Shown here: positions 9,461-30,300 of the stretch, piece after piece
Layout of the letters: each line of letters starts with the position of its first letter
Position numbering within the stretch: position 1 is the stretch's first letter
Source: Candidatus Dormiibacterota bacterium
GTDB taxonomy: Bacteria > Chloroflexota > Dormibacteria > CF-121
NCBI GenBank assembly: GCA_035279665.1
Contig: DATEHI010000152.1
Span: forward strand, 1,350 to 65,349
Reading direction: 5' to 3'
Length of the DNA: 64,000 nucleotides
The notes under the pieces: generated by a model
Databases searched by the model: none
What the model was told of the DNA's origin: nothing
The model's input: only the letters and a program-made list of their open reading frames with translations
Made by a program: the position numbers and the translations under genes

Positions 9461-11305
9461 TTACTCGACGGCCTCCATCAGCAGGATCACACTGGGGGCG
9501 CCGCCGAGCACGCCCATGGCGGTGCACTGCACACGGCAGGTGAAGTTCTTCCCGCGCCGGTTGGTCGCCTGCACCGTCAACTCCTGGAACCCGTCGCCGC
9601 CGTTGAGGCATTTCTCGATCGGGTTCGCCAGCTCCGCTAGCGGCAGGCCGATATCGAGTCCGAGCAGTGGCTGGCCGATGGTTTCGTGGGCCTGGACGCC
9701 CCACAGGTCGACGGCTCGCTTGTTCCAGAGCTGGACCCGAAGGTCCTTGTCGAGCACGGCCACACCCAGCTGAAGGTTGGCCATGATCTGTTCCATGAAG
9801 GTGTTCACGCGGTCCAGCTGGATGCTGCGTTCCTGCAACTCGGTATTGATCGTCTGCAACTCGGTGTTCGTCGACTCGAGCTCCTCATTCATCGTCTCGA
9901 GCTCCTCGTTGCTCGATTGGAGCTCCTCGTTAGTGGTTTCCAACTCTTCGACGGTCGACTGCAGTTCCTCGTTGGTGGTCTCCAGCTCTTCGTTGGTCGA
10001 CTGCAATTCCTCGGACGTGGTTTCGAGATCATGCTTGGACCGCTCGAGGTCCCGGTAGATCCCGTTGTATCCGCTGACGTCGGTAAACGAGATGCCGGCG
10101 CCGAGCGGGGTCGCCCCTTTGTCGAGCAATGGCACGACCTCTATGTCGAAATACTGGGGGTCGCCGTTCGGCGCCCGACGCTCGACGTCGTGGGTGACTA
10201 CCGGCAGGCGGTTCCGGTAGGCCTCGTCGATCATCGAGCGCAGATCCAGCGGACGATAGGAAATCTCGAGATCTTGCAGTGGCCGACCCACGTCGGCAGG
10301 GGCAAGGCCAAGGCTCCCGCGCGCCCGCTCATTGATCGAGATGATGAACCCGGCCGTGTCGACAACCACGTGCGCGATCGGCAGCGCGTCGGCCGCCAAC
10401 TCGCGGACGCGCCCCTGGCGGGTCACCTGGTTGGCTGCCTCGGGATTGCCCGCCTGGGCGAGGATGACCAGGCGCTCGCGGAGCGTCTCTTTCGCGACTT
10501 TGCCGAAGACGTGCTGGGTGGCCTCGACTTGCGCAAAGAGGTCACTTCGCCGCAACAGCATTTCCGCCTTGCCCAGGAACAGGTAGCCCTTCTCGGTCAG
10601 TGCATAGTGCAGACGGGCAAGGATCCTCGCCTGCGCCTCCGATTCGAAGTACATCAGCGTATTCCGGCAAATCAGCAGATCGATGCGTGAGATCGGCGCA
10701 TCCTGTAAGAGATCGTGCCGCCCAAAGATGAGCGAGCGTCGGAGATCGCCACGAAGCAGGTAATGGTTCCCCTCGGCCTCGAAGTATTTCTCTCGAAGGC
10801 CGGGGGATACCTCTTCCAGTTCCTTCTCCTCGGCTCTTCCCTGGCGCGCCCGCGTCAGCGCGTCGTCGTCGACGTCGGTGGCGTAGATCTTGGCCCGTTG
10901 TCGATACTCCGTGGTGCCGAGTGCCTCGCAGAGGAGCATCGCGATGCTGTAGGCCTCTTCGCCCGATGCCACGCCGGCGCTCCATACGCGGATCGGCTCG
11001 TAGCGTTCCTTGGTCGCGATGATCTTGGGCAGGATCTCCTGCCGCAGATACTCCCATGCCGGAGCATCTCGAAAGTAGCTGGTCACATTGATGAGGATCG
11101 TGTTGAACAGGGCAGCGAACTCGCCCGGCTGCGCCTCCAGATACTCGAGATAGGCGGCATGGTCCTTGACACCGACGGCCGTCATCCGTTTGGCGACCCG
11201 GCGCACCAAGGTCGTCCGCTTGTAGTCGCCAAAGTCGAAGCCGCGGCTCTCCCGAATGTACTCCAGAAGCCGCTCGAAGTCGGGGCCTGTCGCCTCGCCC
11301 TTCAC
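9461..11305 (-). CDS. cheR: CheR-type protein-glutamate O-methyltransferase fused to PAS / coiled-coil / PAS sensor domains
   Basis: N-terminal CheR SAM-MTase motifs (RVWSAGVASGEEAYSIAMLL, LLICRNTLMYF) are followed by PAS, a heptad-repeat segment (TTSEELQSTNEELETTNEELQ...) and a second PAS. Confidence 0.8.
   Translation of the reverse strand: MKGEATGPDFERLLEYIRESRGFDFGDYKRTTLVRRVAKRMTAVGVKDHAAYLEYLEAQPGEFAALFNTILINVTSYFRDAPAWEYLRQEILPKIIATKERYEPIRVWSAGVASGEEAYSIAMLLCEALGTTEYRQRAKIYATDVDDDALTRARQGRAEEKELEEVSPGLREKYFEAEGNHYLLRGDLRRSLIFGRHDLLQDAPISRIDLLICRNTLMYFESEAQARILARLHYALTEKGYLFLGKAEMLLRRSDLFAQVEATQHVFGKVAKETLRERLVILAQAGNPEAANQVTRQGRVRELAADALPIAHVVVDTAGFIISINERARGSLGLAPADVGRPLQDLEISYRPLDLRSMIDEAYRNRLPVVTHDVERRAPNGDPQYFDIEVVPLLDKGATPLGAGISFTDVSGYNGIYRDLERSKHDLETTSEELQSTNEELETTNEELQSTVEELETTNEELQSSNEELETMNEELESTNTELQTINTELQERSIQLDRVNTFMEQIMANLQLGVAVLDKDLRVQLWNKRAVDLWGVQAHETIGQPLLGLDIGLPLAELANPIEKCLNGGDGFQELTVQATNRRGKNFTCRVQCTAMGVLGGAPSVILLMEAVE
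9805..10045 (-). repeat. Imperfect 21-nt (heptad-coding) tandem DNA repeats inside cheR encoding the EELQSTNEELETTNEEL coiled coil
   Basis: The plus strand shows reiterated gagctcctcgttg..t.g..t units between about 9880 and 10020. Confidence 0.6.
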
Positions 11306-11976
11306 CGAACCACCCCTTGTGCGACCAGGGTCGTAAGGGCCGGCGGGATCTCCTCGAGCCGAAGAATGAAATCGGCATGGCCCGACTTGATCGCCGCCCC
11401 GGGCATACCGAAAAACTCCGCCGACTCCTGAGCCTGGGCGATCACGGTACCACCCATCTTCTTGATCGCCCCGATGCCGAGCGATCCATCGCTTCCGGTT
11501 CCGGTGAGGACCACCGCAATCGCGCGGTCCTTGTAGCTTGCCGCTACCGATTCGAAGAGCAGGTCGGCGCTCGGCCGGACGAAATGGACCAGCTCGGATT
11601 GCGTCAGCGACAGGCTCCCGTCCCGATTGACCAGGAGATGACGGTCGGGCGGCGCGATGTGCACCGTTCCCGGCCGGATGTGATCACCCTCCGCGGCCTG
11701 GACGACCTCGAGCGGGGTCCGCCGGCGAAGGATCTCGGCCATCAGGCTGCGGTGGCGCGGATCCAGATGTTGGACCACGACAATCGCCGCCGGGAAGCCG
11801 GCCGGGAGGCTCTCCAGGATGTGCCCGATCGCCGCGATGCCACCCGCCGACGAGGCCAGGGCGACCACGTCGTAGGCCGTCAGCGGAAACCGCTGGGCGG
11901 GTTTGGGCGGATCGAGATCGTCAGGCTCGGCTGAGGGCGGTGTTTGCTGGACCAACGTGCCCCTCCTTGGGCCCAT
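11302..11976 (-). CDS. cheB: CheB-type protein-glutamate methylesterase, catalytic domain only (no receiver)
   Basis: VVALASSAGGIAAIGHILESLP...VVVQHLDP...AIAVVLTGTGSDG is the CheB_methylest signature. There is a 4-nt overlap with the downstream cheR start. Confidence 0.8.
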   Translation of the reverse strand: MGPRRGTLVQQTPPSAEPDDLDPPKPAQRFPLTAYDVVALASSAGGIAAIGHILESLPAGFPAAIVVVQHLDPRHRSLMAEILRRRTPLEVVQAAEGDHIRPGTVHIAPPDRHLLVNRDGSLSLTQSELVHFVRPSADLLFESVAASYKDRAIAVVLTGTGSDGSLGIGAIKKMGGTVIAQAQESAEFFGMPGAAIKSGHADFILRLEEIPPALTTLVAQGVVR

Positions 11977-13025: not shown

Positions 13026-14714
13026 GTGACCGTCGTCGAGTTGCGCGTGCTCGACGGGCCCAACCTCTACTTCACGCGGCCCGCCATCAAGCTGACGCTC
13101 GAGGTGGCTCCCTGGCTGGCCCTCCCAGACGAGCGGGCGCAACGCCTCGCCAGGCGGGCCGGCTTCACACCGGCGGCGACCGCGGGCGCGCCCAGGAGCG
13201 ACCAGCGCCGCCGCTATGTCGCCCGCTTCGCGGTGCACATCGCGCGTCTGCTGGCTGACGCAACCGCGACGCACCTCGCGATTCGCGGCCGGCCTGGTCC
13301 GGACGCCGAGCAGATCGTGGTGGCGTTCGTGTGGCGCCGGCAGCGGGCCGCGGAAGCGTTCGCGCGCGAGCTCGCCCCGCTGCTGGAGTTATGCCTCGAC
13401 GGGCGCCGATCGCTCGAACGGGCCATCGCGGAAGCGGCGGATCGCCTGGGCAGCATGGAGCCCGGGCCGGCGCCGACGGTGCTGCGCCCCACCATTCCCA
13501 TCATCGCGGTGACGGGGACCAACGGCAAGACCACCACCGTGCGGTTGATCGCGCAGCTGGCGCGTATGGCCGGGCACACCGTCGCCTTCACGACGACCGA
13601 CGGGGTCTATCGCGACGACGAGCTGGTCGAGGCGGGCGACTACTCCGGGTTCAGCGGGGCGGCCAAGGCGCTGGCGCAGCCCGGCATCGACCTCGCGGTG
13701 CTGGAGACGGCACGCGGCGGGATCCTGCTCCGAGGGATGGGCACCGACCATAACGACGTGGCGGTGGTGACCAATGTGACCGAGGACCACCTTGATCAAT
13801 ACGGGATCCGCACCCTCGACCAGCTGGCGGAAGTCAAAGCGGCGATCACCAAGATCACGAGGCCGGACGGCTGGGACGTGCTCAATGCCGACGATCCACG
13901 AGTGCTGGCGATGCGACGGTTGGCGGCGGGCCGCCCCTGGCTCTTCTCGCTGGACGCGGACCACCCGGCGATTCGCACGACGCTGGCCGAGGGTGGGCGC
14001 GCGATCTCGGTTCTCGATGGCGCCCTCGTCCTTATCACCTCCGGCCGTCAGGGTCACCGACTCGTCCCGATCGAGGATGTGCCGGTTACGCTGGCGGGCA
14101 TTTCCAGCCATAACGTGAGCAACGCGATGGCGGCGGCGGCGGCCGCCCTTGGTGCGGGGATCCCAGAGGAGGCCGTCATCGAGGGGCTTCGCTCCTTCGT
14201 GTTGGACCCGGAGCGCAATCCTGGCCGGGCCAATATTTTCGAAGTCGATCGCCGCGTGGTGGTCATCGATTACGCCCATAACGAAGACGGCATGCGCGGC
14301 TTGATCGAGATCTGCCAGGGGCTGCGAGCACCGGGCGCCGGCATCGTTCTGGCGTTTGGCTCGGCCGGCGACCGGACCAACGCCATCCTCCACCGGCTGG
14401 GATACACGGCGGCGCGTGGTCCGGACCGGGTCGCGATCGCCGAGCTGCATCGGTACCTGCGCGGCCGCGATCCCCAGGACCTGGTCCACCGGCTGCAGGC
14501 GGGGCTTACGGACGGCGGGAAGCCGAAGTCTCCTGTGTTTCCCAACGAGCTCGAGGCGCTCGAATGGATGTTGGCGGCGTCGGCACCCAACGATGTGATC
14601 GCAATCACTGCGCTGGGGCAGCGCCCCCAGATCTTCCAGTACCTGCGCGACCGGGGCGGAGCACCGGTCGCCCCGCTCCGCATCCGGGAACTGGTGCGGC
14701 GCGCGCGGACCTAA
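13026..14714 (+). CDS. Cyanophycin-synthetase-like protein lacking the ATP-grasp (G) domain (CphA N-domain plus Mur-ligase M-domain; CphA2-like)
   Basis: The N-terminus MTVVELRVLDGPNLYFTRPAIKLTLEV parallels the CphA N-domain and the downstream cphA (ILESQVLRGPNFWSYDPAIRLLVDL). It is followed directly by the Mur-ligase P-loop IIAVTGTNGKTTT at about residue 165. The ~300-aa ATP-grasp segment is therefore absent. Confidence 0.65.
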   Translation: MTVVELRVLDGPNLYFTRPAIKLTLEVAPWLALPDERAQRLARRAGFTPAATAGAPRSDQRRRYVARFAVHIARLLADATATHLAIRGRPGPDAEQIVVAFVWRRQRAAEAFARELAPLLELCLDGRRSLERAIAEAADRLGSMEPGPAPTVLRPTIPIIAVTGTNGKTTTVRLIAQLARMAGHTVAFTTTDGVYRDDELVEAGDYSGFSGAAKALAQPGIDLAVLETARGGILLRGMGTDHNDVAVVTNVTEDHLDQYGIRTLDQLAEVKAAITKITRPDGWDVLNADDPRVLAMRRLAAGRPWLFSLDADHPAIRTTLAEGGRAISVLDGALVLITSGRQGHRLVPIEDVPVTLAGISSHNVSNAMAAAAAALGAGIPEEAVIEGLRSFVLDPERNPGRANIFEVDRRVVVIDYAHNEDGMRGLIEICQGLRAPGAGIVLAFGSAGDRTNAILHRLGYTAARGPDRVAIAELHRYLRGRDPQDLVHRLQAGLTDGGKPKSPVFPNELEALEWMLAASAPNDVIAITALGQRPQIFQYLRDRGGAPVAPLRIRELVRRART

Positions 14715-17470
14715 GTCCCGGGCGAGACGGGCAACGCCCGGCGCGCCTCGAGGTTGCGCCAGGTGTCGGCGGGCTTGTCGACGCAGAGGAGGACCACATC
14801 GCCGGCGCTGGCGCGGCCGAGGGCGGCGTCGATGGCCGGTCCCTCGTCGATGATGATCTCGGCGCTCTGCACGCGGCTCTCGGCGGCGGCCTTGATGCCC
14901 TCCATCACGTGGCCGGCGATCTCGCCACGCTGCCGACCGCGAGGGTTCGCGTCTTCGCGCACGATCAGGATGTCGAAGACGCGCGCCGCCACCCGCCCGA
15001 GCTCGCGCATGTCCTCGTTCCGGCGATCACCAGGGGTTGCGATCACGGCGATGCGGCGCCCCGGCTCGGGTCCGTTGACCCCTGGCGCCGTGAGGCGCTC
15101 CACGAAGTCTCCGGCCAGCGCGAGGCCATGCGGGTTATGGGCGTAGTCGACGATCACCTTCACGCCGTGCAGCTCGAACATGTTGAGGCGTCCGGGCGCT
15201 TCGTGGAACGATGGATGGAAGCTGCGCAGCCCCTGCCGGATGTCGTGCAGGTGGGCGCCGGCGGCGTGGGCCGCCGCCGCTGCGGCCAGCGCATTCTGGA
15301 CGTTCGCCCGCGCCCGACCCTCGAAGGTGGCCGGGATCAGGTGGATCCAGGCGATCTGCGTGCTGCGCCGGCCCTCGCGCAGCACCATCATCTCGCGGCC
15401 GCCCGGCTGCGTCTCGATGACGAAGGCTTTGCGGCCGCGACGCACCCAGCGACCCACCAACTCGTTGTCGTCGCGCATCGAGAAAAGGATGACCGACCCG
15501 CTGCAGTGGGTCCGCATCTCGGCGACCAGCTCGTCATCGGCGTTGAGGACGGCGGTGCCGCTGCGGGGAACGGCCTCGACAATGACCCGCTTGATGGCGG
15601 CCAGCTGGCGCAACGAGTTCACCTCTTTGAGGCCGATGTGGTCGCCGGTGACGTTCAGCACGACCGCGACGTCGTTCGCGCTGTAACCAAGGCCCTCCCG
15701 AAGGATCCCACCGCGAGCGACCTCGAAGACGGCAAAGTCGACGCGAGGATTCTGGAGCACCATGCGGGCGGAGCGCGGGCCGCTCGCGTCGGCCGGCTTG
15801 ACCAGCCGGCCGTCGATATAGATGCCGTCGGTGGTCGTCATCCCGACCTTGTGGCCGAGGCCTCTGACGATGTGGGCGATCATGCGCGCCGTGGTCGTCT
15901 TGCCGTTCGAGCCGGTGACGGCGACGATCGGGATGCGCGAGGGCGTACCTTGCGGGAACAGCAGATCGATGACGGCCTTCGCCACATACTGCGGCTCGCC
16001 CTCGGTAGGGTGGGTGTGCATCCGAAAGCCGGGGGCGGCGTTCACCTCGACGATCGCCCCTCCAGTTTCGCGCACCGGCTGGCAGATGTCAGGCGTCAGG
16101 AAGTCGATGCCTGCCACGTCGAGACCGACCACGCGCGCCGCCTCTTCGGCGATCTCGACGTTGTCGTGATCCGCCTCCATGGTGCGGTCGATCGAGATGC
16201 CTCCGGTCGACATGTTGGCGGTCGCCGCCAGCTTGACGACCGCATCCTTTGGCGCAATCTCGTCGAGGCCGAATCCCTGCCGTTTGACCAGCGCGTCGGC
16301 GGCGTCATCGATCTTGATCCGGGTCAGCACCTTTTCGTGGCCGATGCCGCGCCTGGGATCGCGGTTAGTGATGTCGACCAGCTCGCGCACCGTGTGTTCC
16401 CCGTCGCCGATGACGTGCGCGGGAACCCGCTCGGCGACCGCAACCATGTGGCCGTCGATGACGAGCACCCGATAGTCGTTGCCCTTGATAAAACTCTCCA
16501 CCACGACCACACCGCTGCGCGTCTGGCGGATGGCTCGCTCAAAGGCCCGACGGACGTCTTCCTCGGTGCGCAGGTCGAGACTCACGCCGCGTCCATGGTT
16601 GCCGTCGAGCGGCTTCAACACCACCGGATAACCGATGCGCGCGGCGATTGCCGCGGCCTCGTCCGCGGATCGGACGGTATCGCTGCGGGGCACCGGCAGC
16701 CCCGCTGAGGCGAGCAAGGACGTGGTCAGCTTCTTGTCACCCGCGATGTCCACACCCAGCGCCGAGGTGCGGGACGTCATGGTGGCGCGGATGCGCTGCT
16801 GGTATTTGCCCTGTCCGAGCTGGACAAAGGACTGCTCGTTCAGCCGGATGTAGGGGATGTCGCGGCGTGCGGCTTCGTCGAGAATCGCCTGGGTCGAGGG
16901 GCCGAACGCGGCCTGGTCGGCCAGCAGCACCAGGCTCTCCAGCTCGGCGACGAAGTCGAAGGTCGGGTTGGGTTCCACCAGGTGATTGAGCAGCCGGACG
17001 GCAAGCTTCCCGGCCGCCAGTCCGACCTGTTCCTCGTTGTAGCCGTAGACCACGTTGTAATAGCCGGGCGTACCCGCCCGCCGCGTCTTGCCTCGCGTCG
17101 TGCTCGCGCCGGTTTCGCGCTGGAGCTCGAGCGCAACGTGCTCGGCGACGTGGCCCATCCACGTCCCGTCGCGGAGACGCTCGATGAAGCCGCCCGGGCG
17201 GTGGAGCGAGCAGCCGTGATCCTGCAGGCCGGGCAGCAGGTCGATCAGCGCCTCGTTGAAGGCGGGGATCGTGTTCGAGGGCCAGTGCTCGAGCGAGCCG
17301 AGGTCGACGAGCAGGCGAATCGCCGGGTCGTAGGACCAGAAGTTGGGTCCACGCAGCACCTGGCTTTCCAGGATCTTGAGGTTCGGCTTTAGCGGCGGTT
17401 TGTTCTCGACGGGCTCGTGCTTGGCATCCTCGTCGCGCTCGACTCGCGTCTCCATGCGCGACTCGCTCAC
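14711..17470 (-). CDS. cphA: Cyanophycin synthetase CphA (N-domain, ATP-grasp, Mur-ligase domains; 919 aa)
   Basis: ATP-grasp motifs (YPVVLKPLDGNHGRGV, DYRVLVIDGHMVAV) and the Mur-ligase motif IVAVTGSNGKTTT are present. The start ATG overlaps the cphB stop (ATGA). Confidence 0.85.
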   Translation of the reverse strand: MSESRMETRVERDEDAKHEPVENKPPLKPNLKILESQVLRGPNFWSYDPAIRLLVDLGSLEHWPSNTIPAFNEALIDLLPGLQDHGCSLHRPGGFIERLRDGTWMGHVAEHVALELQRETGASTTRGKTRRAGTPGYYNVVYGYNEEQVGLAAGKLAVRLLNHLVEPNPTFDFVAELESLVLLADQAAFGPSTQAILDEAARRDIPYIRLNEQSFVQLGQGKYQQRIRATMTSRTSALGVDIAGDKKLTTSLLASAGLPVPRSDTVRSADEAAAIAARIGYPVVLKPLDGNHGRGVSLDLRTEEDVRRAFERAIRQTRSGVVVVESFIKGNDYRVLVIDGHMVAVAERVPAHVIGDGEHTVRELVDITNRDPRRGIGHEKVLTRIKIDDAADALVKRQGFGLDEIAPKDAVVKLAATANMSTGGISIDRTMEADHDNVEIAEEAARVVGLDVAGIDFLTPDICQPVRETGGAIVEVNAAPGFRMHTHPTEGEPQYVAKAVIDLLFPQGTPSRIPIVAVTGSNGKTTTARMIAHIVRGLGHKVGMTTTDGIYIDGRLVKPADASGPRSARMVLQNPRVDFAVFEVARGGILREGLGYSANDVAVVLNVTGDHIGLKEVNSLRQLAAIKRVIVEAVPRSGTAVLNADDELVAEMRTHCSGSVILFSMRDDNELVGRWVRRGRKAFVIETQPGGREMMVLREGRRSTQIAWIHLIPATFEGRARANVQNALAAAAAAHAAGAHLHDIRQGLRSFHPSFHEAPGRLNMFELHGVKVIVDYAHNPHGLALAGDFVERLTAPGVNGPEPGRRIAVIATPGDRRNEDMRELGRVAARVFDILIVREDANPRGRQRGEIAGHVMEGIKAAAESRVQSAEIIIDEGPAIDAALGRASAGDVVLLCVDKPADTWRNLEARRALPVSPGT

Positions 17471-18399
17471 TCCGAGGCCTTTCGATCCTCGAGACGGCGC
17501 ACCATCTTTCGAACGCGGCCCTGCGCCATCTGGGCGAGATGCTCGTCCTTGGCGAGGACCCGCGGCAGCACGCGGCGCGCGCGCAAGTCGAATCGGTAAC
17601 CGGATGGGAGGGAGTGGAGGCGCGCGTTCGACACCATCATCGGCTTGTGACCGGTCGTCTGGAAAGCGTCGGTGATCACATCGGTGCCGTCGACGATCGT
17701 CACCGAGCCCCGGCCGATCACTTCGAGGACATCATTGGCATCGATGATGGCGGCGGTATCCTCATCGAGGCCCAGCCCGATCAGCGAGGGCGACTGCGCG
17801 ACCACCGCGAGCAGTCGGCCGAGCCGGGTGCGCTGCTCGAAGTGCTGATCGACCACGACGTCGACGAGCAGCCCCAGACCGACCGAGACGTTCGCCATCC
17901 GGTGCTTCGGCGTGGCACCCGAGCTGCCGAACGCCATCATGTGGGTCGCAACCGCGCTCGCGCCCGCGGATGTCCCCGCCACGACGACCCCGCGGCCGTG
18001 GGCGTCGAGCATGGCGGCGCCGAGCTTGGTTCCGCCGATCACGGAGGATAATCGCAGCTGATTACCGCCGGTCATGAAGATGCCGGTGATGTCCTTGAGC
18101 GCCTCGACCATAAGCGGATCGTTGGCCTCTTCGCGAGTTTCCGGACGGAGTCCGGTGACCTTGCTCACGCCGACCCGAGCGAAGATCTGACCGTACAGGT
18201 CCGTCGCCGCATCGCCGAGGGAAGAGGCGGTGCTGATCACGGCGATGCGGGCATGATCGCCACCGGCAAGCTGGGCGAAGCGCGACAGGATGACCCGCTC
18301 GCCCAGTTTGTCCTCGGCGCCGCCGATGACCATGACCGGCCCGACCGGGCCGCCGTCAGTGGTGGGAGCAAGCCGCTGCGGAGCGGACGCGTCGGTCAT
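17467..18399 (-). CDS. cphB: Cyanophycinase CphB (peptidase S51)
   Basis: VMVIGGAEDK...GTSAGASAV... matches the S51 catalytic Ser context. The gene is translationally coupled to cphA. Confidence 0.85.
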   Translation of the reverse strand: MTDASAPQRLAPTTDGGPVGPVMVIGGAEDKLGERVILSRFAQLAGGDHARIAVISTASSLGDAATDLYGQIFARVGVSKVTGLRPETREEANDPLMVEALKDITGIFMTGGNQLRLSSVIGGTKLGAAMLDAHGRGVVVAGTSAGASAVATHMMAFGSSGATPKHRMANVSVGLGLLVDVVVDQHFEQRTRLGRLLAVVAQSPSLIGLGLDEDTAAIIDANDVLEVIGRGSVTIVDGTDVITDAFQTTGHKPMMVSNARLHSLPSGYRFDLRARRVLPRVLAKDEHLAQMAQGRVRKMVRRLEDRKASE

Positions 18400-18536
18400 T
18401 CACGACAGTGTACCGGCGCTCGTATTCCGGCGCTTCGGCTATTTTTTGCGGAATCTTATATGATTGATGTCACATCGTCTGCCAGGCTGGGTTAGCGATC
18501 GGCCTTCCTCGTGCGACGACATGAGTACGGGACTAT

Positions 18537-19760
18537 ATGAGAATATGGGATTGCGGATATCAGGTATTGAATACGGTGATTGACCAGGACGCGGGGACAG
18601 CGGAGCGGACGCCCGCCAGCCGTGCGAAACGCCAGGCGGCCGAGTTGCTACCCCGTCTGCTCGAAGCGTTGCCCCTCGCGGTGGCGCTGTTCGAGCTCGA
18701 CGTCGACGGGTTCCGGTTCCGCTACGGCAACCAGGTGTTCGCTCGGATCCTTTCCCTCGACCGATTGCCCGATGACGGGCAGCTCGTCGGTGAAGTCTTC
18801 CGCCGGGAGGAGCACGACGCAGTCATCGACCTCTTCCAGCTCGTCCGTGTCAGCCGCGAACCACAGAGCTGCTTTGCAGCCGAGGGCGGACAGGGCGCAG
18901 AGACGAACCGCATCTTGAATATCGATGCCTACCCAATGCTCAAGCTCGGCCGCGTGAGCCATGTGCTGGTCCTGGTCGAACAGACGCAGGAGAAGCTGGA
19001 AGCGCGCCAGCGCCAGCAACTCGAGGCCAACCGCTTGCGCAAGAAGGCGGACCAGCTAGCGGGTTTGGAAAAGGCGAAGTCGGAATTCTTACGACTGGCG
19101 TCACACGAGCTCCGAGGACCCGCGGCCATGCTCGGCGGTTACCTCTCGATGATCGAAGACGAATCGTTGGGGCCGGTCCCGCAGGGGTTGCGTCCCGTGT
19201 TGCCGATGTTGAAAGCAAAAGCCGCGCAGATCAACCTCCTCGCCAACGAGATGGTGGAGGCGGCGCGGCTCGAAGATGGGCGCGTGCAGCTGAAGCGCAA
19301 GCGGGTCGATCTGCGGCAGGTGGTCCGTCGCAGTGTCGGGGCAGCGGAAACGACGGCCACACCGCAGCACCGGATCCGTTTTGAGGATCGCGCCAGCCGC
19401 GAGCTCTGGGTACTGGGTGACGTCTTGCGGCTGGAAATCATCGTCGCTAACCTGCTCGACAATGCCATCAAGTACTCGCCGAAGGGCGGCGATGTCACAG
19501 CCGAACTCTCGACCTCGGGCGACATCGCCGTGCTCAGCGTCCGAGACCAGGGCATCGGGATCGCCGCTCAGGACATGGAGCGGCTGTTCGTGCGCTTCAG
19601 CCGGCTGGCGACCCTCAACGACGTGCCCGGCACCGGGCTGGGCCTCTACCTGGCGAGAGAGCTGGCCCGTCTGCACAAGGGTGAAATCGTGTGCGTCTCG
19701 AAACTCGGTGAGGGGAGCGAGTTCGTGCTGAGTCTCCCGGTTGAGCCCGCCAGCAAGTAA
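18537..19760 (+). CDS. PAS-containing sensor histidine kinase (HisKA plus HATPase_c)
   Basis: The H-box is LASHELRGP. The N, G1 and G2 boxes are LLDNAIKYSP, DQGIGI and GTGLGL. The exact start is uncertain (the ATG at 18537 sits in an AT-rich promoter region). Confidence 0.75.
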   Translation: MRIWDCGYQVLNTVIDQDAGTAERTPASRAKRQAAELLPRLLEALPLAVALFELDVDGFRFRYGNQVFARILSLDRLPDDGQLVGEVFRREEHDAVIDLFQLVRVSREPQSCFAAEGGQGAETNRILNIDAYPMLKLGRVSHVLVLVEQTQEKLEARQRQQLEANRLRKKADQLAGLEKAKSEFLRLASHELRGPAAMLGGYLSMIEDESLGPVPQGLRPVLPMLKAKAAQINLLANEMVEAARLEDGRVQLKRKRVDLRQVVRRSVGAAETTATPQHRIRFEDRASRELWVLGDVLRLEIIVANLLDNAIKYSPKGGDVTAELSTSGDIAVLSVRDQGIGIAAQDMERLFVRFSRLATLNDVPGTGLGLYLARELARLHKGEIVCVSKLGEGSEFVLSLPVEPASK

Positions 19761-20349
19761 GCCCCTGACCCTAACGGCGCTGCGCGAGGCGGCAGCCGGC
19801 TGTCGTGCCTGTGACCTCTACAAGACCGGCACCCAGACCGTGTTCGGCGAGGGCCCGGAACACGCCCAGGTCATGTTCGTTGGGGAGCAGCCCGGCGACT
19901 GTGAGGACATGGAGGGCAAGCCGTTTGTCGGCCCGGCCGGACGTGTGCTCGACGAGGCGCTCAAGGAGGCGGGTATCGATCGCCGCCGTGTCTACGTCAC
20001 CAACGCCGTCAAGCACTTCAAGTGGAAGCCGCAGGGGAAGCGTCGCCTGCACCAGAAGCCGAACGCGGCCGAGATCACCGCCTGTCGTCGGTGGTTGGAT
20101 GCTGAGATGGCGGCCGTGATGCCGCACCTCCTGGTGCTCCTCGGGGCGACCGCCGCCCAGGCGCTATTGGGTCGCGATTTCCGGGTGAGCCTGCAACGCG
20201 GTCGGCTCATCGAGCGGCTGGGTCTGCCGCCGGTCATGGCGACCGTGCACCCCTCGTCGATTCTGCGCGCGCCCGACGACGAGACCCGTGAACTCGAGAT
20301 GCGCGCCTTCATTCACGACTTGAGGCGGCTAACCGAGTTTCTTCGCTAA
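19741..20349 (+). CDS. udgX: UdgX-like family-4 uracil-DNA glycosylase carrying the KRRxH loop
   Basis: The GEGP motif, FVGEQPG, the GKRRLHQKP loop (compare M. smegmatis UdgX GKRRIHKTP) and the VHPSS motif are present. The TTG start at 19741 overlaps the kinase stop by 20 nt. Confidence 0.7.
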   Translation: MSPPASKPLTLTALREAAAGCRACDLYKTGTQTVFGEGPEHAQVMFVGEQPGDCEDMEGKPFVGPAGRVLDEALKEAGIDRRRVYVTNAVKHFKWKPQGKRRLHQKPNAAEITACRRWLDAEMAAVMPHLLVLLGATAAQALLGRDFRVSLQRGRLIERLGLPPVMATVHPSSILRAPDDETRELEMRAFIHDLRRLTEFLR

Positions 20350-20509
20350 CGCCAGAGCAATCGCCAGAGGCCGGCGCGGCCGAGCGCCCGCCCCACGATC
20401 TTGTTCTTAGCCCGTCGCGTGATCCGCTGCGGATTGCCCGAGGCCAGCGTCGAGACATCGTTCGCCAGCCGAGCGGCGGCGTACAGCTGCGACACGAGGC
20501 CTCGACGCC

Positions 20510-20773
20510 TCATTCGAAGACCTGGTCGATGAGACTTTTCGCATCTCGTGCCAGCTCGCCGCGCTCCGCCTCGTAGGCTTCGATCACCTGGAGGAGCTGT
20601 TGCGCCTGGTCGGGCTCCCGCAGTCCGAGCACGAGGCCGACTGAGAGCCAGTAGTCGGCGGTTTCGAGCAGGTTGGCATGGATATCATCTGGCGTTTCGC
20701 CCAGCACCTCGCTCATCGAACCGATCAGGGCGCGCCCGTAACGGGCCCATTGCTCATCGACGGAAGGTTTCAT
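20510..20773 (-). CDS. Hypothetical small acidic protein (87 aa)
   Basis: Clean ORF with an ATG start and no detectable domain. Confidence 0.35.
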   Translation of the reverse strand: MKPSVDEQWARYGRALIGSMSEVLGETPDDIHANLLETADYWLSVGLVLGLREPDQAQQLLQVIEAYEAERGELARDAKSLIDQVFE

Positions 20774-20794
20774 AGAAACAGGGTAAACTGGCTA

Positions 20795-20886
20795 CCGCCT
20801 CCGCGGGGAGGTGGCAGAGTGGTCGAATGCGAGCGCCTGCTAAGCGCTTGAGCGGGTGTTTCCGCTCCCCGGGTTCGAATCCCGGC
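20795..20886 (+). tRNA. tRNA-Ser (anticodon GCU), class II with long variable arm and encoded CCA
   Basis: Acceptor GGGGAGG/CCTTCCC with one G-U pair. D-stem GCA/TGC. Anticodon stem AGCGC/GCGCT with loop CTGCTAA. T-arm CCGGG-TTCGAAT-CCCGG. Discriminator G then CCA. Confidence 0.85.
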
Positions 20887-20965
20887 CTTCCCGCCATTAC
20901 ACGTCACCCTCTGCATTGCTTGGGAACGCGAGAGGGCGGCCACGTGGCCGCCCCCAGCATCGTCT

Positions 20966-22489: not shown

Positions 22490-23215
22490 TTATTTAACAC
22501 CGACCAGCGAGACCAGCGCCTGCGCATCGCTGACCGCATGTCCTTCCATGTCGTTATTGAAATACACGAAGACATCGAGCCCACCGCGGCGCCAGTCGCC
22601 GACGCGATTGGCCCACGGCTCCAGCGCGCTGCGGCCATAAGCGAGGCCTCGAGGGGGCAGATGCATCCTTATATATGTGAAGTCGCTGGTGATCTCCAGC
22701 GACTTGGGCATCTTCGGGTGGTCTGGGATGCAGAGAGCGATCCGGTGAGCGCGTAGCAGGTCGAAGACCGCCGGCACGAGCCATGAGTCGTGGCGGAACT
22801 CGAGCGTGAAGCGCACGCCCGCCGGCAGCATGGCAACGAAGTGCCCTAAACGCTGCAGGTCGAGGTGGAAGTTAGCCTGCAGCTGGAAGAGGATGGGTCC
22901 CAGCTTGTCGCCCAGCCCGACCGCCGCATCGACGACCAGGTCGATCGACGTCTTTTCGACCGCGAGTCGCTTGATGTGAGTGACGTAGCGGCTGCCTTTG
23001 ACCGCAAACAGGAAGCCTGGTGGCGCCTGCTCTCTCCAGGCCTCGAATTGCTCCCGCGGCGGCTGTCGATAGAAGGAGTTGTTGAGCTCGACCGTGTTGA
23101 AGTGCTGCGCATAGAAGGCGAAGTGCTCTCGCGCCGGCATCTTGTCCGGATAGAAGAGCTTGCGCCAGTGTGGATAGGACCAGCCCGAACAGCCGATTCG
23201 GATATCGCCCGCCAT
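22490..23215 (-). CDS. DUF72 (YecE-like) family protein
   Basis: The N-terminus IRIGCSGWSYPHWRKLFYP is the DUF72 hallmark. Confidence 0.75.
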   Translation of the reverse strand: MAGDIRIGCSGWSYPHWRKLFYPDKMPAREHFAFYAQHFNTVELNNSFYRQPPREQFEAWREQAPPGFLFAVKGSRYVTHIKRLAVEKTSIDLVVDAAVGLGDKLGPILFQLQANFHLDLQRLGHFVAMLPAGVRFTLEFRHDSWLVPAVFDLLRAHRIALCIPDHPKMPKSLEITSDFTYIRMHLPPRGLAYGRSALEPWANRVGDWRRGGLDVFVYFNNDMEGHAVSDAQALVSLVGVK

Positions 23216-24708: not shown

Positions 24709-24722
24709 CGAACATATGTTCG
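24709..24722. promoter_or_regulatory. LexA (Cheo-type SOS) box CGAACATATGTTCG, perfect palindrome
   Basis: The sequence lies within the 18-bp perfect palindrome TACGAACATATGTTCGTA. It overlaps a TATGTT -10-like hexamer and sits 52 nt upstream of the small RAM-domain gene. Confidence 0.7.
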
Positions 24723-24773
24723 TAGTGTCAAGAGGCTTTGAGGTCTGCCAAACGAGGTGAGAGAATCCCCTTC

Positions 24774-25061
24774 GTGGTCACTGCCGTCGTCCTCATCGAG
24801 GCGGAAAGGTCTGCGATCGCCAAGCTCGGGCCTGCGCTCGCCGACGTGCCAGGTGTCGCCGAGGCGTACTCCGTCACCGGAGAATTCGATTTCGTGGTGA
24901 TCGTCAGGGTCAAGAATCACGAAGAGATCGCCGACGTCGTGACCTCACGGCTGTCGCAGGTGCCGGGGATCGTCAAGACCCACACGCACGTCGCCTTCAA
25001 GGTCTACTCGAAGCACGACCTCGAGGCGATGTTCAGCGTCGGACTGCAGGAAGCGCGCTAG
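24774..25061 (+). CDS. Stand-alone Lrp/AsnC C-terminal (RAM) domain protein (95 aa)
   Basis: ...AYSVTGEFDFVVIVRVKNHEEIADVV...GIVKTHTHVAFKVY is an AsnC_trans_reg fold. GTG at 24774 has a GAGGTGAGAG RBS 10 nt upstream; TTG at 24738 is the alternative. Confidence 0.6.
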   Translation: MVTAVVLIEAERSAIAKLGPALADVPGVAEAYSVTGEFDFVVIVRVKNHEEIADVVTSRLSQVPGIVKTHTHVAFKVYSKHDLEAMFSVGLQEAR

Positions 25062-25084: not shown

Positions 25085-25113
25085 TTGACGAGCGAACATT
25101 TGTTCGATAAGAT
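25085..25113 (+). promoter_or_regulatory. Sigma-A-type promoter (TTGACG -17- TAAGAT) with an embedded LexA box CGAACATTTGTTCG (25093..25106) upstream of imuA'
   Basis: The GAAC-N4-GTTC core (GAACATTTGTTC) is a perfect Gram-positive/actinobacterial SOS box. It lies 96 nt upstream of the imuA' start. Confidence 0.7.
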
Positions 25114-25201: not shown

Positions 25202-25879
25202 ATGCCAGATCGGCTGCAACAAGCCATTACGGTGCTCCAGACCCGCTTCGGGAGCGCCGCGCCGCGCCCGTCGGCACCTCCGTGTCCGGCACGATCCTCC
25301 GGGATCCCCGAGCTCGATGCGTTGACTGGGATCGGCGGGTGGCCGGTGGGCCGGCTGAGCTTGCTGGCGGGACCGAGGGGTTCGGGCAAACGAACACTGG
25401 CGCAGCGCAGCGTCGCCGCCGCCAGCCGGGAGGGACCGGTTGCCTACGTCGACATTCCTGGCCGTCTCGATCCAGAATTTCTGAGCCACTTCGATGCGCG
25501 GCTCGACCACCTGCTGGTCGTGCGACCGAAATCCATCAAAGAAGCGATGGCCAGTGTACGGGTGCTGGCGCGTGCCGGCGTCGACTACATCGCCATCGAT
25601 CTGCCGCGCACGCGATCCTCGGGGCTCGATGCCGAGCTGCCGCACTTGTTGCACCGCGCCGCTGAAGCCGAGTGCACGCTCTTGCTGATCCATGACGCTG
25701 ACGCCGAGGACGCGATCCGCTATTACGCCAGCCTGATCCTGAGCTTCCAGCGCAGCGCCTGGGTCTTTCGCCGCGACGGCGATCTGGAAGGCTTGCAGGT
25801 CGATGCCGCCGTCGTCAAGAACCGGCTGGCGCCACCGGGCCGCACCGCCCGATGGATCGTTCCATACCCGATCCCATGA
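25202..25879 (+). CDS. imuA: ImuA' (RecA-fold SulA-like protein of the imuA'-imuB-dnaE2 mutasome)
   Basis: The Walker A-like motif LLAGPRGSGKRTLA and its position as first gene of the cassette behind a LexA box support the call. Confidence 0.7.
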   Translation: MPDRLQQAITVLQTRFGSAAPRPSAPPCPARSSGIPELDALTGIGGWPVGRLSLLAGPRGSGKRTLAQRSVAAASREGPVAYVDIPGRLDPEFLSHFDARLDHLLVVRPKSIKEAMASVRVLARAGVDYIAIDLPRTRSSGLDAELPHLLHRAAEAECTLLLIHDADAEDAIRYYASLILSFQRSAWVFRRDGDLEGLQVDAAVVKNRLAPPGRTARWIVPYPIP

Positions 25880-27066
25880 TCTGCTGCGTTCGCACGCCCC
25901 ACCCATCGCTGATCGCCGCCTGGCTGACGGCGCCGGCGTTGCGCGGCCGTCTACTGATCCTCGGCGGGTTCGCGCACGAGCGCGCTTCGGTGACGACGGC
26001 ATCGGCCGAAGCGCGGGCGCAGGGCGTGGTCGAGGGGATGAGCCTCAACCAGGCTCAACAATTTGCGCCCGACGCCATCTTTCAACCGGTCGACGAGGAG
26101 GCCACAGCCAGGGTCCGCCAGTCCCTGCTCCTGATCCTGCACCACTTCACCCCCGACGTGGCTGCCGGCGAGGATCCTGGCTGTGCCTTCCTCCGTCTCG
26201 ACCGGCTGGCCTTGCGCTGGCCCGACCGTTCGCAATTGCTGGCCGCCATCGGCCGTGCGATCGAGGCCGCCATCCGCGTCAGGCCGGCGATTGGCGTGGC
26301 GTCGTCGATGTTCGTCAGTGCGGTTGCGGCTGCCCATGCCACGGCTGCGGCCCCGGTGATCGTCGAGCAAGAGAACACGCGAGCCTTTCTCGCTCGCTAC
26401 CCGATCGATGTCCTGCCGCTCGATGACGACCTGCGTGAATACCTCGAGCTCCTCGGGATCAAGACGATCGGCCGTCTGCAGGCGATCTCTCGACCCGCGT
26501 TTCGCCGCCAGTTCGGCCAGAAAGCCCTCGTCGTCTATGACCTGGCGTTCGGCGATGACCGGCGTCGCTTACGGCCCTGGCGGCCGGCCGTCCGGATCGA
26601 GGAAAGCGAGCCACTCGAGCCGCCGGTCGACAACACCCAGGCGCTACAATTCATCGCCCGCGCGCTGGCCGAGCGGGTGAGCGCCTCACTGCTTTCGCAA
26701 GGGCTTGGGACACGCGCGGTCCGTATCACCCTCAACCAGGAGTCGGCACCGGCGCTGGTGATCGAGGCGCGCTTTGCCTACCCGATGACGACCGCGGGCG
26801 AGCTGTTCGATGGGATTCGCCCGCGATTGCTGCGCGCGTCGATCATCGCGCCGCTGGAACGGATCACGCTGCGCGCCGGCCGGCTGGAAGCGGCCTATGT
26901 TCGCCAACCCGGGCTGCTGATCCGACGCGATCCCTTCACGGAAGGGATCGCCGATGCGGTCGCGCGCCTACAGGAGGAGTACGGGCCGTCCCTGGTCCAG
27001 CGTGCCGAGGTCCGCAGCGATGCTGCGCCACTCCCGGACCACCGGATCCTGTGGAAACCCGCGTGA
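25852..27066 (+). CDS. imuB: ImuB (catalytically inactive Y-family polymerase-like protein), N-terminal 404 aa
   Basis: Y-family palm/fingers-like region. It overlaps the imuA' end by 28 nt. Its C-terminal domain appears to continue in a different frame (next feature). Confidence 0.7.
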   Translation: MDRSIPDPMICCVRTPHPSLIAAWLTAPALRGRLLILGGFAHERASVTTASAEARAQGVVEGMSLNQAQQFAPDAIFQPVDEEATARVRQSLLLILHHFTPDVAAGEDPGCAFLRLDRLALRWPDRSQLLAAIGRAIEAAIRVRPAIGVASSMFVSAVAAAHATAAAPVIVEQENTRAFLARYPIDVLPLDDDLREYLELLGIKTIGRLQAISRPAFRRQFGQKALVVYDLAFGDDRRRLRPWRPAVRIEESEPLEPPVDNTQALQFIARALAERVSASLLSQGLGTRAVRITLNQESAPALVIEARFAYPMTTAGELFDGIRPRLLRASIIAPLERITLRAGRLEAAYVRQPGLLIRRDPFTEGIADAVARLQEEYGPSLVQRAEVRSDAAPLPDHRILWKPA

Positions 27067-27317
27067 CGGAACTGCTGGCGCCGGCACGGCCGGTCCGGGT
27101 GCGTGTCGATGCGGATGGCGTGCCGACGCACCTCGAGTCGGCGGCCGGGTGGCAGCCGGTGACCCGTGTGCTCAACCGCTGGCGAATCGACTGCGACTGG
27201 TGGCGCAGCCCGGTCTCGCGCGAGTACTGGCGGCTGCTGATCGACGATGACCTCGCGCTCGAGTGCTATTGCAACCGGGCCAGTGCGGAATGGTTTGTCG
27301 AGCGCGTCTATGACTAG
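27051..27317 (+). CDS. imuB: ImuB C-terminal domain segment (88 aa) in the -1 frame relative to imuB. This is a frameshift or a split gene
   Basis: VTELLAPARPVRVRVDADGVPTHLE...RWRIDCDWWRSPVSREYWRLLIDDDLALECY...FVERVYD carries the WW / WR motifs of the ImuB C-terminal domain. Its GTG at 27051 overlaps the imuB stop region. Confidence 0.55.
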   Translation: METRVTELLAPARPVRVRVDADGVPTHLESAAGWQPVTRVLNRWRIDCDWWRSPVSREYWRLLIDDDLALECYCNRASAEWFVERVYD

Positions 27318-30300
27318 CGCCTACGCCGAGTTGCACTGCCACTCCAACTATTCCTTCCTTGAGGGCGCATCGCATCCTGACGAGCTGCTGGCGCGCGCCC
27401 GCGACCTCGAGATGCCGGCGCTCGCCATCACCGACCGCAACGGCTTCTACGGCGCGGTCAAGTTCTTCGGCGCGGCGCAGCGAGCAGGCATCCAGCCGAT
27501 CATCGGCACCGAGCTGACGATCGACGACGGGACCACGCCGCCGAAAGACCGGGTGGATTACGACCGCTGGGGGGATCGGTTGCTGCTGCTCGTTGAAGAC
27601 AAGCTCGGTTACACGAGCCTCTGCCGCTTGATCAGCATGGCGCAGATGCCCAACGCGAAAGGCATGGCACGCTTAGCTCCAGACAAACTTGCAGGGTTGA
27701 GCAACCATCTGATCGCGCTGGTCGCCGATCCCAAAGAGCGGCTGCCCTTCTACCAGGAGATCTTCGGCCGCGAACGGGTCTTCATCGAGCTGCACGACCA
27801 CCTGGCTCCGGACGACCGCTCGCGCAACCAGCGGCTGCTCGACCTGGCCGGGCAGTATGCGGCGCCGCTGGTCATCACCAACGAGGTCTTTTATGCGACG
27901 CCCGACCGGCACAGGCTCCACGACGTCCTCACTGCGATCCGTCATCGCACCACGCTCGACGAGGCGCAGCGCTATCTGCATCCGAACGCCGAGCACTACC
28001 TCAAGTCGGGGGTCGAGCTTCGCCAGGTCTTCGGCCGGTACCCGCGGAAGGTCGTCGACGACGGCCTGGCGCACGCCGCGGAAATTGCGGGGCGCTGCCT
28101 CTTCAGCTTCGACCTGGTGAGCGCGCGCTTTCCCGGCTTTCCGGTCCCGGCGGGGGAGACGCCGTACTCCTTCCTGTACCGGCTCTGCCAGGATGCCGTC
28201 CGCGAGAAATATCGTCCGGTCACTTCCGAGGTGGCGGCCCGTCTGCAGAAAGAGCTCGACGTCATCAACAAGACGGGCTTCAGCGAGTTCTTCTTGATCA
28301 ACTGGGACCTGATGCGGTTCGCGCGCTTACGCGGGATCCCGGGCCAGGGCCGCGGTTCGGCGGCCGACAGCATCGTCGCCTACCTGCTCGGGATCACGCG
28401 GGTCGATCCGATCGAGCACAACCTGCTCTTCGAGCGCTTCCTGCACGAAGAGATGACGACGACACCCGACATCGACATCGACTTCTCCACCGCGCACCGC
28501 GAGCAGGTGATCCAGTACGTCTACGAAAAGTACGGCCCGGAGCGCACCGGGATGGTCTGCAACGTCGTGACCTACCGCCAGCGGTCCGCGATCCGCGAAG
28601 TCGGCAAGGCGCTGGGATTCAAGGAGGAGACGATTGATCACCTGGCGAAGTCGGCATCAGCCTGGCACCCGGAAAGCCCGGAGACGATCGCGCAGGCGGC
28701 CGGCTATCCGACGGCAAACGCCGCGAAGCCCTGGCAGCAATTGTTCGACCTTGCCACCCAGATCCTCGATTTCCCGCGTCATCTCTCGATCCATGTCGGC
28801 GGGATGCTGGTCACCGGCGAGCCGCTGATCGACATCGTGCCGGTCGAGCGCGCCACCATGCCGGGCCGCATGGTGGTGCAGTTCAACAAGGACGACGTCG
28901 AGGAGCTGGGCTTGATCAAGATGGACATGCTCGGCCTGCGCATGCTCTCGGTGGTCGCCGAAGCGCTCGACCTGATCGAGGCCGACACCGGCGTACGCCC
29001 CGACCTCGACGCGCTCGACCTGAAAGACCCGGCCGTCTACGAACTCTGCACGCAGGCCGACACGATCGGGGTGTTCCAGATCGAGAGCCGGGCGCAGATG
29101 CAAACGCTGCCGCGCTCGCGACCCGAGACCTTCAACGATCTCGTCGTGGAGGTCGCGATCATCCGCCCTGGCCCGATCCAGGGCGATGCGGTGCATCCGT
29201 ACCTCAGGCGCAAGCAGGGCAGAGAGCCGGTGATGTACATCCACCCACGCTTGAAACCGATCCTCGAGGAGACGCTCGGCGTCGTCCTCTACCAGGAGCA
29301 GATCCTGAAGATCTCGATGGAATGCGCCAGCTTCTCGAGCGCCGAAGCCGACCGGTTCCGGCGGGCGATGAGCAGCCATCGGTCGCACGACTTGATGGCG
29401 GCGATCCGCGAGCGCTTCCTCAGCGGTTGCGCTCACAACGAGATCCCGCAACCGATTGCCGAGGAGATCTTCACCAAGCTGTCCGCCTTCGCCGAGTTCG
29501 GCTTCACAAAGTCACACGCGGCCGCCTTCGCCCGAACCTGTTACGAGACCGCCTGGCTCAAGCTGCATCACGCGCCCGCACTCTACGCTGGGCTGCTCAA
29601 CCACCAGCCGATGGGCTTCTATCACCCGCACGTGCTCGTCGAGGACGCCAAGCACCACGACGTCAAGATCCTGGCGGTCGACATCAACAAGAGCTATGTG
29701 CGCTGCACCGTCGAAGGTGGCGCATTGCGACTCGGCTTCAACTACGTGCATGGCGTCGGCGACAAGGCCCTCGAGGTCCTCGAGGAGGCGCAGCTCAAAG
29801 GTCCGGTCACCTCGCTCGAAGAGTTCTGCCGCCGCATTCGCCTGACGACGCAATCTCGGAACGGCCTGACCCGGGCGCAGGTGCAGAACCTGGTGCTGGC
29901 CGGCGCCTTCGACGCGCTGGAACCGAACCGGCGAGAGGCGGTCTGGCGCTTCAACGAGCACGCCGACGATTGGCAGCACACGCCGATGCTGGCCGAGCCG
30001 TCAGAGTCAGTGAGCCTGGCACCGATGACCCACCGCGAGCGGGTCGCGACCGACTACCGGCTGCTCTCGCTAACGACGACCGACCACCTGATTCATTTCT
30101 ACCGGCCGCAGTTCGATGCCTTGCACGTGATCGACTCGAAGACGATCCGATCGAGTGTTCGAGACGGAGCGAAGGTCCGGGTTGGCGGCCTGGTGATCAC
30201 GCGGCAATCGCCATCGACCGGCAAGGAGTTCAAGTTCTTCACGCTGGCTGATGAGTTCGGCCACGTCGACGTCATCCTGCGGCCGCCGATCTATCAACGG

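Follow-up and report, generated by a model that had tools for sequence, protein, structure and literature searches.

We analysed a 64,000-nucleotide stretch of a Candidatus Dormiibacterota contig (DATEHI010000152.1, assembly GCA_035279665.1), hereafter the window, which carries a udgX-family gene overlapping the 3′ end of a sensor histidine kinase gene. UdgX is a single-use uracil-DNA glycosylase (UDG) that crosslinks itself to DNA, and it serves as a uracil-detection reagent. Three features make up the locus:

18567..19760, + strand: cytoplasmic sensor histidine kinase of 397 amino acids (aa), with a PAS-like N-terminus, HisKA and HATPase_c (Pfam, gene caller)
19741..20349, + strand: stand-alone udgX-family gene of 202 aa, running from a TTG start to a TAA stop at 20347-20349
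19741..19760, + strand: 20-nt overlap from the udgX TTG (19741-19743) to the kinase stop TAA (19758-19760), udgX being read in the +1 frame with respect to the kinase

The product of the second gene of this pair is very probably a functional [4Fe-4S] protein of the UdgX family, stand-alone in architecture; the pair forms a two-gene unit, conserved in one Dormiibacterota clade, whose first gene encodes a PAS-type sensor kinase.

The window protein belongs to the UdgX family

In the udgX reading frame, a TGA (19729-19731) stands upstream of the TTG at 19741, and the next in-frame start, the GTG at 19840, lies past the CxxC iron-sulfur motif, leaving TTG 19741 as the sole start that yields a complete domain. 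Pfam found the UDG superfamily domain alone in the 202-aa protein. The NCBIfam model of the UdgX family, TIGR03914, gave 286.8 bits (cutoff 189.95), with profile positions 41-230 of 231 covered. The protein also passed the broader family-4 model TIGR00758 (146.1 bits; cutoff 125.3) and stayed below the cutoff of the NCBIfam archaeal type-4 UDG equivalog (128.1 versus 250).

Searches with phmmer against the Protein Data Bank (PDB) returned top matches that were all entries for the UdgX of Mycobacterium smegmatis (MsmUdgX; E = 4.7e-61, query residues 11-196), the best conventional family-4 UDG reaching E = 5.7e-30. BLASTP aligned the window protein with MsmUdgX at 56% identity over 180 residues (E = 5e-69). 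An AlphaFold2 model, built from a 29-sequence alignment, had a mean predicted local distance difference test (pLDDT) score of 94.6, ∼91 in the R-loop region, and a predicted template-modelling score (pTM) of 0.91. Compared by Foldseek with 30 MsmUdgX chains, this model gave template-modelling (TM) scores of 0.89-0.92 and root-mean-square deviations (rmsd) of 1.0-1.7 Å; with family-4 UDGs of Thermus, Thermotoga and Sulfolobus, the values were 0.77-0.83 and 2.6-3.1 Å. The TIGR03914 score, the PDB and BLASTP similarities and the model fold thus bear out the open reading frame (ORF) at 19741-20349 and its UdgX-type identity, both proposed in a first-pass annotation of this DNA. An identical protein, GenBank HKV32461.1, is labelled "UdgX family uracil-DNA binding protein" by NCBI, and an exact copy is also encoded on a contig from a soil metagenome in ENA. 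Judged by its sequence, the window protein is an intact further member of a well-characterised, widespread family, and the public annotation is already correct.

Functional residues of MsmUdgX are retained

The hallmarks of UdgX are motif A, 51-GEQPG-55 (catalytic E52, Q53), together with D56, D59, F65, N91 and K94; the R-loop 105-KRRIH-109, with R107 and the covalent nucleophile H109; motif B, 178-HPS(S/A)(L/V)(L/V)R-184; and a 4Fe-4S cluster with one Cys swapped for His (PMC10359453, PMC10776899, PMC4787834). In our alignments, every functionally tested MsmUdgX residue had an identical counterpart in the window protein:

MsmUdgX E52, Q53: window E49, Q50
MsmUdgX D56, D59: window D53, D56
MsmUdgX F65: window F62
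MsmUdgX N91, K94, H95, K97: window N88, K91, H92, K94
MsmUdgX K105-R-R107-I-H109: window K100-R101-R102-L103-H104
MsmUdgX C24, C27, C120: window C21, C24, C115
MsmUdgX H178, R184: window H170, R176

Conservation was scored in a representative alignment of 150 rows, comprising the window protein, MsmUdgX and 148 family representatives, one per 50%-identity cluster. The motifs lie as follows:

19801..19812, +: Cys21-x-x-Cys24, the first two predicted [4Fe-4S] ligands, invariant in alignment A1 and present in 143/150 rows
19882..19908, +: motif A, G48-E49-Q50-P51-G52, then D53, C54, E55 and D56 (from the ORF and alignment)
20002..20022, +: N88-A-V-K91-H92-F-K94, with N88, K91 and H92 invariant in alignment A1 and in 120/120 close homologues
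20035..20061, +: R-loop G99-K-R-R102-L-H104-Q-K-P107, aligning with MsmUdgX 104-GKRRIHKTP-112
20050-20052, +: CAC codon of His104, the predicted covalent nucleophile, aligned with MsmUdgX H109
20083..20085, +: Cys115, the fourth predicted iron-sulfur ligand, conserved in 150/150 rows
20248..20268, +: motif B, H170-P-S-S-I-L-R176, aligning with MsmUdgX 178-HPSSLLR-184; H170 and R176 in 120/120 close homologues

Several of these positions have assigned roles. Mutation of C27 inactivates MsmUdgX, and the third iron-sulfur Cys of family-4 UDGs is replaced in UdgX by the His that corresponds to H92 (PMC4787834). The Gln at Q50 is UdgX-specific, and the Asp pair at D53/D56 anchors the loop Arg by a salt bridge (PMC10359453, PMC10776899); the roles of this pair and of the residues equivalent to MsmUdgX F65, N91 and K94 have been described (PMC10776899).

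The first-pass annotation had matched the loop GKRRLHQKP to the UdgX loop GKRRIHKTP and equated its His with the crosslinking residue. Three independent alignments (HMMER, MAFFT and BLASTP) confirmed this, each placing His104 in the column of MsmUdgX H109, so that the two are positionally equivalent. In the representative alignment R102 was conserved in 147/150 rows and H104 in 148/150. The spacing from the Asn to KRRxH is 12 in the window protein, as in 84/97 representatives, and 14 in MsmUdgX, a state found in 6/97. Motif B carries Ile for L/V at its fifth position, a conservative change, and otherwise matches HPS(S/A)(L/V)(L/V)R. By homology with MsmUdgX, the window protein would be expected to share its crosslinking chemistry and to bind an iron-sulfur cluster.

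An intact gene with a short N-terminus

The ratio of nonsynonymous to synonymous substitution rates (dN/dS) of udgX was 0.17 and 0.16 against relatives at 88% and 84% nucleotide identity, respectively, which indicates purifying selection. All catalytic positions were invariant across 120 close homologues, and G+C content by codon position (0.71/0.48/0.83) resembled that of neighbouring genes.

Four observations weigh against a functional UdgX made as part of a two-gene unit. The window protein is without a 15-21-residue N-terminal segment, bearing an 'ELIP/FVP'-like motif, that the majority of stand-alone relatives possess, as do L010 and L090-L093 within the clade; its absence is why TIGR03914 positions 1-40 are unmatched. 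Two private substitutions, R54C and P117R, depart from the ≥90% consensus of the 120 close homologues. No Shine-Dalgarno motif was found upstream of the udgX TTG; since about half of the window genes also lack one, this says little either way. Finally, the RNA fold around the udgX start was no stabler than shuffled sequence (z = 0.21), giving no structure-based signal of coupling.

We considered two other readings of the gene. A conventional, turning-over family-4 (UdgA-type) UDG that merely resembles UdgX would also pass TIGR00758 and share the fold and iron-sulfur motif of the Thermus and Thermotoga enzymes, and single substitutions of the loop His turn MsmUdgX into a turnover enzyme (PMC10359453), which places the two activities close in sequence space. 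However, motif A of family-4 enzymes reads GE(A/G)PG, with A or G in place of Q50; these enzymes also have Pro or Asn at the R102 and H104 positions (MsmUdgX R107/H109) and no R-loop, whereas the window protein has Q50, R102, H104 and the loop. Across the more than 1000 sequences of a published survey, the combination of R107 and H109 was always a mark of UdgX (PMC10359453). Both sequence and structure scores come out far better for UdgX (E of 1e-61 versus 1e-30, TM of 0.92 versus 0.83), and we regard a UdgA-type enzyme as very unlikely. Slightly less credible still is that the ORF is a remnant, truncated at its N-terminus and with a rare TTG start, that is decaying or not expressed. Loss of the N-terminal segment of its relatives, use of TTG and lack of a Shine-Dalgarno motif would suit such a remnant, but dN/dS, the invariant catalytic residues and the coding-type G+C profile argue for a maintained gene. 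The short N-terminus is moreover common to more than 100 sequence clusters, 56 with 20 and 62 with 23 residues before CxxC. A functional UdgX-family protein is thus the reading we carry forward.

The N-terminal difference can be placed precisely. Relative to L010, L090, L092 and L093, the window and its closest relatives lost 45-63 nt (15-21 codons) immediately downstream of the conserved 'LSPP' start, a stretch with the family-typical 'ELIP/ELVP' motif; the overlapping start was kept. Of the private substitutions, Cys54 (19900-19902), where 119/120 close homologues have Arg, sits between the two loop-anchoring Asp residues, and Arg117 (20089-20091) replaces a Pro found in 112/120.

The absence of Shine-Dalgarno-like motifs from about half of the predicted window genes (e.g., those starting at 12041, 39448 (- strand), 45452, 49045 and 54386) was accompanied, in several window genes, by TAnnnT-type -10-like hexamers no more than ∼15 nt ahead of the start codon. 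These sequence features suggest that leaderless or short-leader mRNAs may be frequent in the source organism.

The sensor kinase and the overlapping junction

The upstream gene gave Pfam scores of 94.5 bits for HATPase_c and 27.1 bits for HisKA, with an H-box 'SHELRGP' whose His codon lies at 19104-19106. Its longest ORF begins at ATG 18537, a codon that relatives do not conserve; the conserved start is probably TTG 18567. The first-pass annotation had called it a PAS histidine kinase. The histidine kinase part stands; the PAS part is weakly supported in the window protein, in which PAS_8 scored 20.0 bits, under the cutoff of 21.8, and is supported in orthologues at 71-77% identity (393-399 aa), which have precomputed PAS_4 matches.

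The kinase ends at 19760, so that the udgX TTG does lie 20 nt inside the kinase ORF, as had been noted in the first pass. Relatives of this locus form a clade set of 12 loci from metagenomes and metagenome-assembled genomes (MAGs) (L002-L009, L090-L093) plus one GTDB contig, L010. All seven distinct clade junctions compared (7/7) have the udgX start codon (TTG in six, GTG in one) at exactly -20, counted from the final base of the kinase stop, and conserve the in-frame TGA three codons upstream of it as well. At the kinase codon overlapping the start, Val, Arg and Leu all occur. No udgX start other than the codon at -20 is available in the window, L002 or L090. Comparison of these sequences thus gives good evidence for TTG as the true start and for maintenance of the overlap.

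Kinase and udgX are very likely co-transcribed, since there is no room between them for a terminator or promoter. A scan of positions 18300-20900 for sigma-70 promoters and intrinsic terminators found none. The conserved overlapping start makes translational coupling of the kinase and UdgX, by termination and reinitiation, plausible. An RNA structure hiding the udgX start codon was rejected on the fold z-score given above.

We also looked for a kinase-UdgX fusion or programmed frameshift, and rejected both: none of the 120 best kinase homologues (331-399 aa) has a UDG domain, and kinase domains are absent from all 60 long UdgX representatives, 51 of which carry DUF4130. A 90%-identity cluster table does group the 397-aa kinase (18567-19757) with UdgX proteins of ∼200 aa; we treat this as a clustering artefact tied to the gene overlap.

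The kinase-udgX pair is specific to one clade

All clade relatives examined share the arrangement of the window, with cphA-cphE divergent from the kinase-udgX pair and two small convergent ORFs following it. This synteny persists down to ∼79% identity for UdgX and ∼71% for the kinase. On longer clade contigs DinB_2-DUF72-DUF222 comes next, and several also carry the AsnC-like gene, imuA', imuB and dnaE2.

Outside the clade the picture was different. We scanned GTDB species representatives, at least 596 of which have confirmed UdgX relatives. Among the best 80 genome loci a kinase lies directly upstream of udgX at one (L010, Dormiibacterota), and at 0/78 of those from other phyla. Because it is absent from 79 of these 80 loci, we conclude that the kinase-udgX linkage is lineage-specific and not general to UdgX genes. 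All-against-all ORF clustering of 81 loci placed no partner family at more than 8 loci, true neighbours occurring at no more than 6. A conserved cross-phylum neighbourhood of stand-alone udgX was rejected: the largest cluster (8/81 loci) overlapped udgX itself. A literature search found no relevant paper combining UdgX with a histidine kinase. To judge from the literature searched, the clade-conserved overlapping arrangement, a probable operon, is the only feature of this locus not described elsewhere.

One relative, the 9.4-kb contig L007 (GCA_035602075.1), shares the clade synteny and encodes a UdgX at 84% identity, but carries the label 'Candidatus Binatus sp.', from a phylum other than that on the labels of the remaining relatives (Dormiibacterota). 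Mis-binning of L007 is the probable cause.

Two explanations of the overlap deserve attention. Passive genome compaction in the clade, giving a shared transcript and no functional or translational coupling, has in our judgement about an even chance of being correct. It agrees with the single upstream kinase among the best 80 loci, with the lack of any family beside stand-alone udgX at more than 6/81 loci, and with the absence of a response regulator adjacent to the pair. In addition, a ∼12-kb block (cphA-cphE, kinase-udgX, the small ORFs and DinB_2-DUF72-DUF222) is syntenic in the clade, so that the adjacency may simply be inherited. However, only TTG and GTG occur as the start at -20 while the kinase codon over it changes, and the overlap outlasts the 45-63-nt indels just downstream; retention of the start despite both suggests selection on the exact arrangement. 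At the other extreme, a suicide crosslinker might be made in fixed ratio with, or be controlled by, the PAS sensor kinase through the coupled TTG/GTG start, tying uracil tagging to an environmental or redox signal and perhaps feeding lesions to imuA'-imuB-dnaE2. We think this improbable; if true, it would amount to a signal-linked use of UdgX that has not been described for any organism.

UdgX is widespread among bacteria

The first-pass annotation had regarded UdgX as restricted to a subset of actinobacteria, and hence as a lineage marker. This is refuted by its presence in at least 596 species genomes, by the share of Actinomycetota among the best matches (13/80) and by the window itself, as Candidatus Dormiibacterota is its own phylum within Bacillati, outside Actinomycetota. 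The best 80 of the at least 596 genomes, with phyla taken from record titles, comprised ∼29 Acidobacteriota, 13 Actinomycetota, 11 Alphaproteobacteria/Pseudomonadota, 7 Verrucomicrobiota, 4 each of Chloroflexota, Myxococcota, Gemmatimonadota and Eremiobacterota, and 2 each of Planctomycetota and Dormiibacterota. An exhaustive representative search recovered 1152 clusters of relatives (50% identity) at E ≤ 1e-30, and a word-index search gave at least 8000 matches. Such breadth (at least 596 species genomes, 1152 clusters) makes UdgX unusable as an actinobacterial marker. UdgX activity has been reported for Bradyrhizobium in published work, which also describes a 'sporadic distribution in bacteria' (PMC10359453, PMC10776899).

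Two architectures occur in the family, stand-alone proteins of ∼200-250 aa, the window type, and fusions of ∼450-500 aa; an N-terminal DUF4130 precedes the UDG domain in 51/60 long representatives. No DUF4130 or radical-SAM match was found among the window ORFs scanned, which sets the window protein apart from the DUF4130-fusion subgroup.

Surroundings of the locus

Upstream of the kinase-udgX pair, and divergent from it, lies the cyanophycin block, syntenic in the clade relatives that reach it. Downstream lie two small ORFs, a tRNA gene and a mutasome cassette:

13026-18399: Mur-ligase-like gene and cyanophycin block
14711-17470, -: cyanophycin synthetase
17467-18399, -: cyanophycinase
20346-20513, -: 55-aa ORF, its stop overlapping the udgX stop
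20510-20773, -: 87-aa ORF, overlapping the 55-aa ORF by 4 nt
20805-20896, +: tRNA-Ser(GCT), the only Rfam match in 64 kb
24710-24721: SOS-box-like palindrome (GAAC-N4-GTTC), perfect, GAACATATGTTC
24738-25061: AsnC-like gene
25094-25105: SOS-box-like palindrome (GAAC-N4-GTTC), perfect, GAACATTTGTTC
25202-25879: imuA'-like gene
25876-27066: imuB-like gene
27247-30453: dnaE2, error-prone polymerase (NF004225, 1091 bits; cutoff 939)

The 55-aa and 87-aa ORFs converge on udgX and are conserved in clade loci extending past it; searches of Pfam, NCBIfam and PADLOC gave no match for either. The tRNA gene separates the udgX unit from a little-characterised block that comprises a 247-aa ORF without a family, DinB_2, DUF72 and DUF222-HNH. 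In the window, udgX has a DUF72 (YecE-like) gene nearby (22490-23215, -). The same holds for L011, a Limnocylindrales MAG (4718-5440, -) whose DUF72 is 65% identical to that of the window, and for L067, an Actinomycetota MAG (7075-7782, +). The occurrence of DUF72 at 2/80 loci could be chance.

The imuA'-imuB-dnaE2 cassette, ∼5 kb downstream of udgX, is syntenic on clade contigs that extend far enough. Two perfect boxes sit just upstream of the AsnC-like and imuA' genes, and the window holds three exact GAAC-N4-GTTC matches where 0.74 were expected. As a context for UdgX function, the proximity of this cassette is no more than suggestive. SOS control of kinase-udgX itself was rejected: the cphE-kinase intergenic region contains no GAAC-N4-GTTC box, even with one mismatch allowed. 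A role in anti-phage defence was rejected as well, UdgX and six neighbouring proteins having no PADLOC match and the kinase a single weak one (PDC-M43B, E = 6.8e-06).

Further features of the window are:

9461-11976, -: CheB methylesterase, then a CheR-PAS-PAS protein
33167-33970, +: Fpg/Nei-type glycosylase
35558-38604, -: two tandem glutamine synthetases
51595-54345, +: 916-aa ORF with no Pfam match

A proposed mechanism

All steps of the mechanism that we propose are drawn from homology with MsmUdgX (PMC10359453, PMC10776899). Uracil would be flipped out of DNA, with F62 stacked on the base and N88 and H170 pulling on or stabilising the leaving uracilate, and the N-glycosidic bond would be cleaved by the window protein. 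His104, on the K100-R-R-L-H104 loop, would then attack C1′ in place of water, leaving a protein-DNA crosslink stable in sodium dodecyl sulphate (SDS). Activation of His104 may fall to E49, and the loop that bears it would be positioned by salt bridges between R102 and D53/D56 and by Q50. Because the adduct is covalent, each UdgX molecule would work once. In model hosts, resolution of such adducts was RecA-dependent and impaired without recombination functions or SOS polymerases, and cloning of MsmUdgX in ung- E. coli did not succeed (PMC4787834).

Comparison with known systems

The closest characterised relative is MsmUdgX (MSMEG_0265; PDB 6AJO, 6AIL, 6IO9, 8IIE). Both proteins are stand-alone, ∼200 aa long and share one fold, with identical GEQPG motif A, KRRxH loop, HPSSxLR motif B and C/C/H/C ligand set. 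They differ in that the window protein has a pre-loop segment two residues shorter (FKWK--PQGKRRLH versus FKFTRAAGGKRRIH in MsmUdgX), the state of the family majority, a 3-residue deletion before motif B and a shorter N-terminus. The window protein comes from Dormiibacterota, is encoded in a predicted kinase operon and is known from sequence. UdgX proteins of Bradyrhizobium diazoefficiens, M. avium and Rhodococcus imtechensis belong to the same family and have reported activity (PMC10359453, PMC4787834), which shows that more than one phylum has crosslinking activity. Bradyrhizobium-type loci (L081) encode proteins with ∼61% identity to the window UdgX and have no kinase upstream.

DUF4130-UdgX fusions (TIGR03915 plus TIGR03914) usually lie beside a 'DNA modification/repair radical SAM' gene, and literature on DUF4130 exists (PMC3765255, bioRxiv 10.64898/2026.08.19.745780). 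Their C-terminal domain has the same signature, with E, R and H invariant and Q nearly invariant in alignment A2; the window protein differs in having no DUF4130 domain.

Taken together, these comparisons indicate that the locus brings no new chemistry and adds an intact UdgX member from Dormiibacterota. Its practical value is modest, namely a divergent, shorter UdgX for comparative enzymology and a corrected family distribution, while the strict kinase-udgX overlap in one clade offers a hint on when cells deploy UdgX. The family-4 UDGs of Thermus thermophilus (UDGA, 1UI0) and Thermotoga maritima (TM0511, 1VK2) stand further off, at 35-37% identity and TM scores of 0.80-0.83. They share with the window UdgX the alpha/beta fold, the [4Fe-4S] site, the Glu of motif A and the HP of motif B, but they have no KRRxH loop, A/G where UdgX carries the motif A Gln, an all-Cys set of four ligands and true glycosylase turnover (PMC10359453, PMC4787834).

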